From IMG/VR virus record IMGVR_UViG_3300032292_000851: a stretch of 20,000 nucleotides of DNA, one strand, 5' to 3'. Positions 2,278 through 12,371 of the stretch are shown here, one piece after another. The notes beneath the pieces are model-generated. The model made no database searches. It worked only from the letters and a program-made list of their open reading frames with translations, and was not told the origin of the DNA. Made by a program: the position numbers and the translations under genes. Source of the stretch: an uncultured virus (IMG/VR IMGVR_UViG_3300032292_000851) (Duplodnaviria > Heunggongvirae > Uroviricota > Caudoviricetes). Every line of letters begins with the position of its first letter. The stretch's first letter is position 1.

Positions 2278-3021
2278 ATGAAACTTAAAAAGTATAACGA
2301 CTTTATTAAAGAGTCTTTTAGTACATCTCAACAATATGCTAATTTTTTAACATCTAAAGCTATATCAACTGATATATTCGATGATAGTTTATTTGATGTT
2401 AAACAATTTGCTAGAGTTAATAACTATAGATATGTAGTTGATACAAAAGGACATGCTGTTAATACTGAAATTGATGATAATGAAACGTATAGATTACTTT
2501 ATACTTGTCAAATTCAATACAGTTTAGTACCAGGTAAAAATGATTTTAATAAAATTCTTGATAATCTAAATACTATTAAGATATCTGTAGATGAAATGAT
2601 AGATAGAGTTGAAGAGGAAGGATTAAAAATTGAAAGTAATGAGTATTGGTCAGATAAAACAACAGGACACGAAAGAGTTATTCACACTTTTTCCATATCA
2701 TTTATTAGTGATGAAATAAGCACACAAGAATTAAAGGATATATTTAATACTTACAACACATCACAAGATAAAGAATACTTAGATGGTCTTAAACAACTTA
2801 GAAATATCTACAGAGAAGAAGGTATAGACTTTGATAGATATATGGACACCAATACCGACGCAATGGGGATGACCGCTGATGAGGAATATATTCAAGTTGG
2901 TGTGTTTTTAGGTGATGATTTATACGGTGTAGCCTCATATAATACAAAAACTAAACAATTCACTATAGATGAGGACGAAATAGTTGCCTCGGTAAACGCT
3001 TATAGAGAAGACAATCAATAA
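2278..3021 (+). CDS. Hypothetical protein with capsid-targeting-like N-terminus
   Basis: MKLKKYNDFIKES N-terminus; AATATATA at 2266-2273. Confidence 0.7.
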   Translation: MKLKKYNDFIKESFSTSQQYANFLTSKAISTDIFDDSLFDVKQFARVNNYRYVVDTKGHAVNTEIDDNETYRLLYTCQIQYSLVPGKNDFNKILDNLNTIKISVDEMIDRVEEEGLKIESNEYWSDKTTGHERVIHTFSISFISDEISTQELKDIFNTYNTSQDKEYLDGLKQLRNIYREEGIDFDRYMDTNTDAMGMTADEEYIQVGVFLGDDLYGVASYNTKTKQFTIDEDEIVASVNAYREDNQ

Positions 3022-3022
3022 A

Positions 3023-3048
3023 AAAACCCACTCAATTGAGTGGGTTTT
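3023..3048. terminator. Bidirectional intrinsic terminator between convergent genes
   Basis: Perfect palindrome AAAACCCACTCAATTGAGTGGGTTTT. Confidence 0.9.
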
Positions 3049-3056
3049 ATTTTTAA

Positions 3057-4508
3057 TTAAAGCTTGATAGCCTTAATCTCATTGTAAAGAGCCTTCTTAT
3101 CTAACTCCATCATTTTCATGATGTCAAAAACTTTATCGCTGAAGCCAGCTAAAGCGAAGACATTTTGTTCAGGGAACTGTAAAGTACCCATTCCAGCAAG
3201 ATCCCAAGAGTAAACGTATGGATTAGCACCAAACTTACTCTTATACTTAGAGAACTCAGCAGATGGAGTTGTATAACCCATCCAACCTTGCATGTCTGAC
3301 AAGATAATAACTCTATCATACTTCTTGTTAGCTCTATCAAAGATGGCTTTGAAATTGGTACCACCACCTGAGAATCTGAAGCTATTTCTAATAGTCATTA
3401 CAGAATCCATTGGATTATAAGACATATACTTAGCATCAGTAGAGAAAGTCATAACATCACAGTTATTAACTTTGGCCAAGATAGCACCAAACAATGAAGC
3501 AATCTCAGATGGTTTACCACTCATAGAACCAGAAACATCCATAACAACAAGTGTCTCACCATCAAATACTGGTACGTTAGCAACAGAAATATCAAGTGCT
3601 TGACCAATTGCCATAAGAACGTCTCTTACGTCTTTAGAAGAACCAATCTTACTGATTTCTTCATAAGCAGTTGAGAAACGGAATGGAAGAACTCTAGAGT
3701 TCTTAATCAATCTTTCATCAACCAACATTTCACAAGCTGAACTAACAGCAGTTGGAGATTGAGTGATGATGTTTCTCAAGTTTCTAAGAAGTGCGAAGTA
3801 GCCAATCTTCTTAGTAGAAATCAACTCTGACCAAGCATCGGCTTTCAATTTAGTCAAGTCTTCTTCAGACTCAGCTACTTGACCAGCTTGTGATAACATA
3901 GACTCCCAAGTTTGAGTGTTTTTCAACTCACCTTTAACAAGTGACTCAAGAGCCGCTTTATTTCTAACAGTTGGAATTGGATGAACAATGTTAACTAAGT
4001 CAACAAGTTTTACTTCTTTGTTATCACCTTTGTACTTAGCCAGTTGGTAACCATCAAACTTATCGAAAGCTTTAGCGAATCCTTTCTTCAAAGCATTTGG
4101 AAACTTAGGACTATCCTTAGAAGTCTTATAAGCTAAGTAATATGACATGATTTCAGTCATATCATCAACACGAACAACTACTTTGTCGTAGAAGTTTTTA
4201 CCCCACTCGGCACCCGATAGCTGTGACGTTAATTCACCAGCAAGGGCATGAGTAATACTTCTCATACCGAAACGGTCACGAGAAAAGATAGCCGCCTTAG
4301 CAACAAACTCTTTATCTTTTACTTTAGCAGAAAGTTTTCTCAAATCATCTAATGACGTTTGAGCATTTCTATAAAACTGGTCATTAACAAATGATGTTAA
4401 TAAAAGTGATACTAAAGCTAGTTCATCAGATTGTGAGTAAGCTTGTCCACCTGCTAGGTTTTCAGTTAAAGTCTTTGCCTTTGGCATTGTTGTGTTAAAT
4501 TTTGACAT
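3057..4508 (-). CDS. rsr: Ro60/Rsr RNA-binding protein (TROVE + vWA domains)
   Basis: TROVE hallmarks (NLAGGQAY, FDGYQLAKY, TWE, ALLRNLRNI, LPFRF) plus vWA MIDAS DVSGSM, GGGT and ILSDMQ. Confidence 0.95.
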   Translation of the reverse strand: MSKFNTTMPKAKTLTENLAGGQAYSQSDELALVSLLLTSFVNDQFYRNAQTSLDDLRKLSAKVKDKEFVAKAAIFSRDRFGMRSITHALAGELTSQLSGAEWGKNFYDKVVVRVDDMTEIMSYYLAYKTSKDSPKFPNALKKGFAKAFDKFDGYQLAKYKGDNKEVKLVDLVNIVHPIPTVRNKAALESLVKGELKNTQTWESMLSQAGQVAESEEDLTKLKADAWSELISTKKIGYFALLRNLRNIITQSPTAVSSACEMLVDERLIKNSRVLPFRFSTAYEEISKIGSSKDVRDVLMAIGQALDISVANVPVFDGETLVVMDVSGSMSGKPSEIASLFGAILAKVNNCDVMTFSTDAKYMSYNPMDSVMTIRNSFRFSGGGTNFKAIFDRANKKYDRVIILSDMQGWMGYTTPSAEFSKYKSKFGANPYVYSWDLAGMGTLQFPEQNVFALAGFSDKVFDIMKMMELDKKALYNEIKAIKL

Positions 4509-4541
4509 AATCTATATTTTAATTTTTAATTTATTTTAAAT

Positions 4542-4580
4542 AAAAAAGACCAGATAACATTTCTGTTTATCTGGTCTTTT
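4542..4580 (-). terminator. Intrinsic terminator/attenuator between the ncRNAs and ro60
   Basis: Minus strand AAAAGACCAGATAA-ACAGAAATG-TTATCTGGTCTTTTTT, ending about 33 nt before the ro60 ATG. Confidence 0.85.
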
Positions 4581-4588
4581 ATAATTTG

Positions 4589-4868
4589 CGCAAACAAGTA
4601 AATTTAGCCTAAGCGTTACAAAGAATTCTCCCGAAACTTTGCCTATAGTTGTAGTGACCATATCACTCAGTTCTTTATTTAAAGGAAGTTTCTGAATTCC
4701 TTGACTAACCTCTTAAAAAGAGTTTCAGGAGTCACCTGGACTTTTTCACTTTAATTCAGTACGTCCTCTCGGCTCCGAATTCAGTAGCTTTGCTGTCGCT
4801 TAGCACTTTTTCTGTCATAGTTTATATTTGAATATATCGAAGTATCTCAAACTATCGCTATGTCTGCG
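4589..4868 (-). ncRNA. Long (280 nt) Y-RNA-like structured RNA
   Basis: Ends pair: CGCAGACA/TGTTTGCG, TAGCGA opposite TTACT, TAGTTTGAG/CTTAGGCTA, then TACTTCGA; several internal hairpins; directly upstream of ro60. Confidence 0.75.
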
Positions 4869-4883
4869 TTTTAATTATATTGA

Positions 4884-4951
4884 CCAGAGTAAGTTATTAA
4901 AGAGTGTTTTTTTGAATTACATTTCGAAGTAACCCTTCAATTCACTACTGG
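4884..4951 (-). ncRNA. Short (68 nt) Y-RNA-like structured RNA
   Basis: CCAG/CTGG, TAGTGA opposite TTACT, ATTGAAGGGT/ACTCTTTAAT, and T-loop-like GTTAC-TTCGAAAT-GTAAT; same scaffold as the long RNA. Confidence 0.75.
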
Positions 4952-5088
4952 AGTATTTTAATTGTCTTTCTTTTATATCAGAAAATCAAAAAGTTTTAAT
5001 TTTCTTCAAAAAAGTTTTTTTTAATTTGTTTAGTATATATCAACCTCTAAAATTTCGTTTTTTTCAAAGGTGGATTTTTTATAGTCAT

Positions 5089-12320: not shown

Positions 12321-12341
12321 TTTTTAAATTTAATATAAAAC

Positions 12342-12371
12342 AAAAAACCCACTCAAATGAGTGGGTTTTTT
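12342..12371. terminator. Bidirectional intrinsic terminator
   Basis: AAAAAACCCACTCA-AA-TGAGTGGGTTTTTT between convergent genes. Confidence 0.9.

Follow-up and report, generated by a model that had tools for sequence, protein, structure and literature searches.

What decides whether transcription of a pair of Y-RNA-like units continues into the ro60 gene that follows them? The question is raised by a 20,000-nucleotide stretch of DNA from an uncultured virus (IMG/VR record IMGVR_UViG_3300032292_000851; we call this whole stretch the window), in which two such units and an intrinsic terminator lie upstream of ro60, all on the minus strand (Table 1). The balance between Ro60 and Y RNA matters because the bound and the free protein do different jobs. 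An earlier note on this DNA had proposed that the terminator and an alternative, read-through helix exclude each other and that free Ro60 chooses between them. In our best reading, the leader is a Ro60-responsive transcription attenuator that would act by negative feedback, and we give this a probability of roughly 0.6. That the two-state layout of the leader is real and under selection is, in our judgement, very nearly certain.

The ro60 gene and the parts of its leader

The open reading frame belongs to the Ro60/Rsr family (TROVE plus vWA). It matches the Pfam TROVE model with E = 6e-17, above the cut-off, and vWA_Ro60 with 25 bits, slightly below the 27.7 that would be required. A profile of Ro60 relatives matched, over nearly the full length, the phiRo60 structures 9L5Y and 9KOP (E = 1e-34) and also D. 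radiodurans Rsr (2NVO) and human and Xenopus Ro60; phiRo60 is the closest solved structure to this family of Ro60 proteins. Close to the locus are nrdA and genes encoding a DnaB-like helicase and a family B polymerase, and from this gene content the window looks like the DNA of a huge phage. The closest named record is LR745206.1 (an uncultured phage, 634,780 bases), whose Ro60 is 81.8% identical and whose leader is 70.4% identical to that of the window across 93% of its length. Most of the bacterial assemblies returned for window-type Ro60 carry the label Bacteroidota, which is only a hint as to the host. ARAGORN reported 0 genes on the window. Near-identical bidirectional terminators stand between convergent genes at 3020-3050 and 12340-12370, and these are the source of weak Rfam leader matches.

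Table 1. Features of the ro60 locus in the window, listed from the candidate promoters towards the gene
Feature	Position	Strand	Remarks
Second candidate promoter	5033..5041	-	phage TATATA motif; putative function
Candidate leader promoter	4971..4996	-	AAACTTT ... TATAA type; pattern 5' of the short unit in 81/90 leaders; putative function
Short Y-RNA-like unit, proposed Ro60 sensor	4884..4951	-	68 nt; outer stem A:B, bulged U4947, head motif 4933-4925
Strand A	4951-4945	-	pairs with 4884-4889, closing the short unit, with U4947 bulged
Strand B, switching strand	4882..4889	-	partner A (stop state) or C (read-through state)
Spacer 1	4873..4879	-	UAUAAUU; one end of a self-closing RNA contig lies inside (4875-4877)
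Long Y-RNA-like unit	4589..4868	-	about 280 nt; closing stem with bulged U, head motif 4846-4838, large non-tRNA-like interior
Closing stem of long unit	4868-4861 with 4589-4596	-	from folding and alignment
Spacer 2	4580..4586	-	AAUUAUA; pairs with spacer 1, sets C beside B
Intrinsic terminator	4542..4580	-	hairpin 4579-4545, U-tract 4547-4542 (U6)
Terminator arms	C = 4576-4570, D = 4554-4548	-	C is the 5' arm, D the 3' arm
A/U-rich gap, terminator to start codon	4509..4541	-	33 nt; without a clear promoter
ro60 (Rsr/TROVE + vWA), proposed gated gene	3057..4508	-	483 aa; from Pfam and profile search

The terminator hairpin (C:D) folds at −17.3 kcal/mol, ends in U6 and lies between the RNAs and ro60, 33 nt from the start of the gene at 4508. 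It was absent from the list of a simple terminator scan, probably because its bulged stem and its loop fall outside the rules of the scan. C can also form 7 Watson-Crick pairs with B (UCUGGUC 4888-4882 with GACCAGA 4576-4570), and spacer 1 can form 7 pairs with spacer 2 (UAUAAUU 4879-4873 with AAUUAUA 4586-4580). Both helices stack outward on the closing stem of the long RNA, across small internal loops. The earlier note had drawn the terminator and both helices exactly so, and it had taken the whole extension to be exclusive with the terminator and the short unit. This is right for the 7-bp B:C helix, which competes with A:B and with C:D, but not for the A/U spacer helix, which forms either way (P = 0.57-0.95, present in both folding states). 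The leader of ro60 contains, in short, an intrinsic terminator and a conserved antiterminator that excludes both this terminator and the upstream helix, as an attenuator should. A separate ro60 promoter in the gap is unlikely: within 4509..4541 of the window we found neither a sigma-70-like site nor an exact TATATA, in agreement with the claim that no promoter is recognizable there.

The two units have a common head, which consists of a stem, a bulged U, RG, 8 nt and then G(U/A)UACUUCG. The long unit varies from about 200 to about 320 nt across the clade of close relatives that is defined below. Its interior (4597-4838 in the window) has conserved blocks and variable hairpins, without tRNA arms or an Rfam family, and may be an unclassified effector domain. 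Early on, the 5' part of the long unit can also adopt another helix (about 4855-4850 with 4823-4818), which resembles a short unit. We considered and rejected the idea that the long RNA is RNase P-like: by eye, the RNase P-like words are in the wrong order relative to the consensus and are unconserved. On the other side of the leader, window positions 5033-5085 form a conserved block that ends in TATATA and that is found 5' of the leader in most clade loci, also where the upstream gene differs.

Conservation and covariation of the switching helices

We collected 242 loci, with two of the sources contributing the best 80 of 363 and the best 80 of 90 matches. Once the window was added, 234 loci included the 5' end of ro60, and comparison of their last 450 nt left 180 distinct leaders. 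The clade of the window, with Ro60 at least 64% identical, accounts for 100 leaders, of which 90 could be parsed (nine of the others had a short flank and one was without the head pair).

Conservation of the helix in related phages, which the earlier note had anticipated, is clear. Among all 26-nt windows within 650 nt upstream, the one containing B was the top partner of the terminator arm in 88 of the 90 clade leaders, with a median of −14.65 kcal/mol, versus −8.6 kcal/mol for the best other window. The choice of terminator in this test favored hairpins with a C-type arm; without that preference, the same partner pattern was seen among the rows listed. Control hairpins with U-tracts had a median of −9.05 kcal/mol (n = 72, taken from the first 60 clade loci, on both strands and many of them inside genes), and −13 kcal/mol was reached by 70/90 leaders versus 7/72 of these controls. 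Also, B and C match each other within a leader: own partners pair at a mean of −14.18 kcal/mol versus −11.94 kcal/mol for swapped partners (69 distinct pairs), and 0 of 20,000 permutations were as low, where the sequences are related and so are not independent trials. As the sequences of the closing stems vary between units and between lineages, the match of B and C is not due to a common protein-binding sequence.

For covariation, we aligned 44 leaders out of 52 non-redundant ones. The B:C helix together with two extension pairs is 86.4% paired (slid controls, 17-43%), and double changes occur at 4 of its 9 pairs, in 21 cells, a level that 0 of 500 shuffles equalled. The extension pairs vary by lineage, and the 7-bp core is mostly invariant within the clade, with a one-base gap in 9 of the 44 rows. 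The competing and supporting helices are also maintained: the terminator has 97.4% of its cells paired and double changes at 6/8 pairs, and the closing stem of the long unit is 99.2% paired with double changes at 7/9 pairs. The A:B helix of the short unit has three pairs (G-C, A-U, G-C) that are invariant in 44/44 leaders. In one leader (L021), A, B, C and D have all changed together, and in two others (L058 and L060) there is a concerted shift of B and C. The complementarity of the spacers is lineage-specific among the clade leaders.

Folding order and the input to the proposed switch

We modeled the order of folding by equilibrium folding of growing transcripts (this is not a kinetic simulation). 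In the window, A:B has P = 0.99 until C emerges, B:C has P = 0.89-0.94 at transcript 3' ends 4570-4554, and from 3' end 4548 onwards A:B and C:D have P = 0.99-1.0. The clade behaves alike: as long as D is unmade, pairing of the arm with the B window exceeds P = 0.5 in 87/90 leaders, and in the complete leader the same holds for C:D in 89/90. The alternation inferred in the earlier note appears in part in these growing transcripts, in that B:C dominates until D emerges, but the terminator then wins without any protein. At full length and protein-free, A:B plus C:D in the window is better than B:C by 8.6 kcal/mol. Because of this difference, any switch must be kinetic, and read-through requires that B:C persist while the polymerase crosses the U-tract. 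The all-or-none switch implied by the earlier note does not survive this result; a real one would be probably leaky. The antiterminator is metastable in these calculations, and the outcome is decided within about 25 nt.

How much would a bound protein change the outcome? With the RNA exposed to 4552, which is about what a paused polymerase leaves free given a hybrid of 8-9 bp, a modeled bonus of 3 or 6 kcal/mol for A:B lowers B:C from 0.88 to 0.36 or 0.08, respectively. However, before D is made, the free ensemble is better than the A:B-clamped one by a median of 6.8 kcal/mol (70/88 distinct leaders). This is more than modest binding repays at equilibrium, so the model needs kinetics, and a bound protein would act through slower strand exchange.

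We propose the following mechanism. A single transcript would begin 5' of the short unit. The short unit (A:B) would fold first and the long unit would close second, and this closure would set spacer 1 against spacer 2 and B beside the emerging C; the spacer helix may serve as a toehold. If the short unit is bare, then C would zip along B from the spacer side, displacing A, and with C occupied while the polymerase crosses the U-tract, some transcripts would enter ro60. Free Ro60 on the bulged-U helix of the short unit would block or slow this invasion, in which case C:D would form and transcription would stop, yielding Y-like RNAs only. These RNAs, and possibly damaged host RNA too, would soak up Ro60 and re-open ro60, a negative feedback that would match the amount of Ro60 protein to RNA. 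We infer the binding of Ro60, the direction of control and the sensing of damaged RNA.

RNA contigs give a view of the products. Part of the stretch is contained in 24 runs, 21 of them recorded as RNA, and we compared four runs, as contigs, which cannot prove ends, strand or level. In run X1, a 365-nt contig without differences from the window closes on itself by joining 4875 to 4541 (two letters of the joint are ambiguous, 4875-4877 / 4541-4543), which gives a 335-nt cycle with its ends in spacer 1 and the U-tract. In run X4, the joint is from 4870 to 4590, at the base of the long stem (281 nt), and another contig (4615-4913) spans the spacer between the units, so uncut precursor sequence exists. 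The back-joined contigs may be true circles or reverse-transcriptase jumps. They weakly indicate a leader RNA and a joint at the terminator, and the joints lend weak support to a transcript that ends at the terminator and to a long RNA that is excised from a precursor. We rejected the step in contig depth as evidence: it was 225.8 (X1) and 472.8 (X4) in the leader against 11.8 and 10.7-20.9 in ro60, with no step in X2 or X8, and depth is a single figure per contig, with the ro60 contig of X1 differing from the window at 51 places. There was no contig bridging the terminator among the pieces listed for X1 or X4, which is uninformative.

These data bear on several other explanations. First, the attenuator could be real but have an input other than free Ro60, such as the speed or pausing of the polymerase, or cutting in the spacer that removes B, and the result would be a fixed ratio or one coupled to processing. 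This fits the metastable antiterminator and its narrow decision interval, the ends of the X1 cycle in the spacer (4875-4877) and the U-tract, and the lack of the published Ro60 motif (see below). We nevertheless consider it unlikely. A weak terminator would suffice for a fixed ratio, and a fixed ratio leaves unexplained why B, in lineages with unrelated sequences, always shares bases with the invariant bulged helix in the second-last unit; the uncut sequence in run X4 also speaks against cutting of the spacer.

Second, B:C could be a helix for processing or end joining that would frame the long RNA so that a nuclease or ligase can act on it, in which case ro60 would rely on leak-through or on a promoter of its own. 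Contigs in which the long RNA is joined back on itself come from two studies (4875 to 4541 in X1 and 4870 to 4590 in X4), and the gap has a near-copy of the phage TATATA, with one mismatch, at 4518-4511. We think that this explanation is quite improbable. The joints are at the base of the long stem and in the U-tract, outside B:C, and the X1 form is entirely without B. Framing needs no terminator arm, yet the arm is consumed in every lineage that has the layout. As to the promoter, TATATA is a common motif of this phage (among the 18 gene starts listed for the window, 11 have it no more than 60 nt away); it follows the terminator in only 11 of the 90 clade leaders.

Third, the ligand could be another one or the sign of the switch could be reversed: a molecule that binds the long RNA or the invariant head motif, or Ro60 itself on the long unit, would favor B:C and turn ro60 on. 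The same bulged helix and head do occur in both units, and the long interior is conserved in blocks without belonging to a known family. However, the long-unit stem has P = 0.96 unaided in the window, so its stabilization would gain little in the model, and B:C destroys only the helix of the short unit. We give this possibility very little weight.

Finally, ribosome-mediated attenuation through a leader peptide is almost certainly wrong, in that the 20-codon ATG frame starting in the long unit of the window and the ATG frames of at least 8 codons in 82/90 leaders do not agree in start, frame or peptide across the 12 leaders that were listed (L022 is without a frame), a frame lies over B in only 35/90 leaders, and no conserved short reading frame over the switching helix was found.

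Recurrence, Y-RNA relatives and known attenuators

Returning to the Ro60-responsive attenuator, we looked at leaders outside the clade. There are 80 distinct distant leaders: 6 are short, 17 are headless, 33 have heads without a terminator in the last 125 nt (33 of the 57 that bear heads), and 24 have a candidate terminator. In a test for contiguous helices, the expected site ranked first in just 7 of these 24 loci, a test that missed bulged or short overlaps and that had false terminators among its loci. In a hand-picked set of 20 loci (19 of the 24, with L102, L112, L116, L230 and L232 dropped by eye, plus L107), the pairing of the arm with the strand just 5' of the last unit is clear in 11, partial in 5 and absent in 4. 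The switch sequences of the distant loci are unrelated to that of the window, and the loci that have the layout are scattered over several parts of the Ro60 tree, with loci that lack a terminator among them (the deep branches are poorly supported). Of 7 named phage records, one, that of phage csAssE-Sib (OR575929.1; Ro60 29.8% identical), shows every part of the layout. No upstream site there pairs better with the arm than its B site (−16.6 versus −8.9), and folding gives P(C:B) = 1.0 as long as D is missing and P(C:D) = 0.89 once it is present. The other six records are without the layout, as are all 21 loci of a phylum sample (21 of 401 genomes had a match). The layout is widespread among phage-like loci yet not general, and wherever it occurs, the switching 3' strand comes from the second-last unit.

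Are the units Y RNAs? They are encoded less than 4 kb from ro60 on the same strand, and each has a long stem formed by its paired 5' and 3' ends, with a bulged helix and an internal loop, as in the broad definition of Y RNA. They are not members of YrlA, because the published motif GNCGAAN0-1G, which YrlA and YrlB have near the 5' end, is missing from 90/90 short and 90/90 long clade units, and the T and D arms, which with an acceptor stem make up the permuted tRNA-like domain of YrlA, are missing from 90/90 clade leaders (by pattern search). A looser motif, RGYGA, occurs in 60 short and 63 long units of the 90 leaders, and YUAY is at the start of the head or V-loop in 82/90 short and 17/90 long units (the long unit of the window has AUAC). 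Rfam model RF02553 (YrlA) has no match in window positions 4500-5000 at E up to 10, neither the window nor any of 8 clade loci matches an Rfam family at its gathering score, and 8 distant loci gave tRNAs only. The bulged base of the window units is U, and in vertebrate Y RNAs it is C. Among distant arrays, units with T and D arms were found in 21/74 by pattern search, and two units of locus L076 match RF02553 without reaching its gathering score (E = 6e-7 and 6e-6). The bulged helix of the short unit recurs in the long unit and in these distant YrlA-like units. The clade units look like Y RNAs, seem to have a head of common descent with that of the YrlA-like units, and are putative partners of Ro60.

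Of the Ro60-sensing attenuation claimed in the earlier note, the terminator/antiterminator layout stands, by its conservation, its compensatory changes and its independent recurrence, and the link to Ro60 is plausible, as the helix that B:C destroys is the one with three invariant pairs. In a study of bacterial Y RNAs, V1 cut the 5'/3' stem of Yrn1 more strongly when Rsr was bound, which was read as stabilization, and the stem was protected; Y-RNA-free Rsr matures 23S rRNA and a bound Y RNA inhibits this; and YrlA and YrlB of M. smegmatis come from one precursor, encoded 5' of rsr (PMC4201824). Counting against the link, GNCGAAN0-1G and the T and D arms are missing from the clade units, and of the four RNA-facing basic residues that the phiRo60 study names (PMC12135203), two seem to be conserved in the Ro60 of the window (K141 and K142) and two do not.

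The arrangement is familiar in part. In the YrlA/YrlB and Yrn1/2 systems with Rsr, too, several RNAs precede ro60 on one strand (Chen et al., 2014, PMC4201824; Wang et al., 2018, 10.1101/312249), and bacterial and phage Y RNAs, like the window units, apparently come from a single precursor and have a stem formed by pairing of the 5' and 3' ends. The long unit of the window (about 280 nt) is larger than the quoted size range of Y RNAs (80-220 nt). Thermus phage phiLo likewise encodes a Ro60 and two upstream Y-like RNAs (Yrl1 and Yrl2), and binding of RNA by Ro60 was demonstrated there (PMC12135203). In the main text of that report, "terminator" and "autoregul" occur 0 times, and we did not find the layout when we parsed the phiLo leader. 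A terminator/antiterminator role for bacterial and phage Y RNAs is not described in the passages that we consulted. The known control of the Salmonella operon is the activator RtcR. In contrast to RtcR, the leader of the window would offer feedback without a factor.

Protein-responsive transcription attenuators include the ribosomal-protein leaders (L20 and L10 in Firmicutes), PyrR and TRAP. In such attenuators, an RNA-binding protein stabilizes an anti-antiterminator helix and the intrinsic terminator forms, and the ribosomal-protein leaders achieve autoregulation via a mimic of the protein's normal target. That mimic is disposable, whereas the sensor in the window would be a real partner RNA that is itself a product. 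Also unlike L20, L10, PyrR and TRAP, a second full non-coding RNA would be the scaffold that joins the switching strands over 300 nt. In the literature that we searched (titles and abstracts, few of them from subscription papers), we found neither Y-RNA attenuation nor Ro60 autoregulation. The leader would work like a protein-responsive attenuator whose components are not described in such a role within that literature.

More speculatively, and at somewhat worse than even odds, we suggest that in diverse phages Y RNAs make up a riboregulator in which the second-last unit is the Ro60 sensor and the last unit, of any size or type, is the antiterminator scaffold. Such an operon would read free Ro60, and hence the load of damaged RNA, without a transcription factor, and the scaffold in huge phages would be an unclassified Y RNA (220-320 nt) with a non-tRNA effector domain, maybe circular. 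This would be a new role for Y RNAs, as cis-acting sensors. A practical consequence is that a simple rule, by which the arm of the terminator should fit the 3' strand of the unit before the last, detects Y-like RNAs that Rfam misses, including the large unclassified one.

Other loci may have other forms of control. Six distant loci (L074, L076, L209, L211, L213 and L216) have a short ORF just 5' of the Y-RNA arrays whose product, by eye, is like a small DNA-binding protein, and promoter-level control is possible there. Most of the loci L253-L269, from a different, bacterial TROVE subfamily (about 30% identity), are without upstream Y-RNA heads and share a palindrome some 30-60 nt ahead of the start, in many cases followed on its far side by a divergent gene; this palindrome looks like a transcription-factor operator.

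Some loci have additional elements between the terminator and the start of ro60. L008, L128 and L134 have a multi-branched hairpin element of roughly 75 nt (diverged in L021), for which L008 and L021 gave no Rfam match at the gathering score. A long tRNA-like element is at this position in L188, and apparent small ORFs are in L049, L176, L189 and L196; in these five loci, the elements or ORFs would be under the terminator's control. Finally, in L017 (also L018 and L020, and similarly in L070), an insertion some 156 codons into ro60 interrupts the gene; the inserted ORF is, by eye, HNH-endonuclease-like, with the phage AATATATA motif just 3' of the stop. The leader switch is intact despite this interruption.
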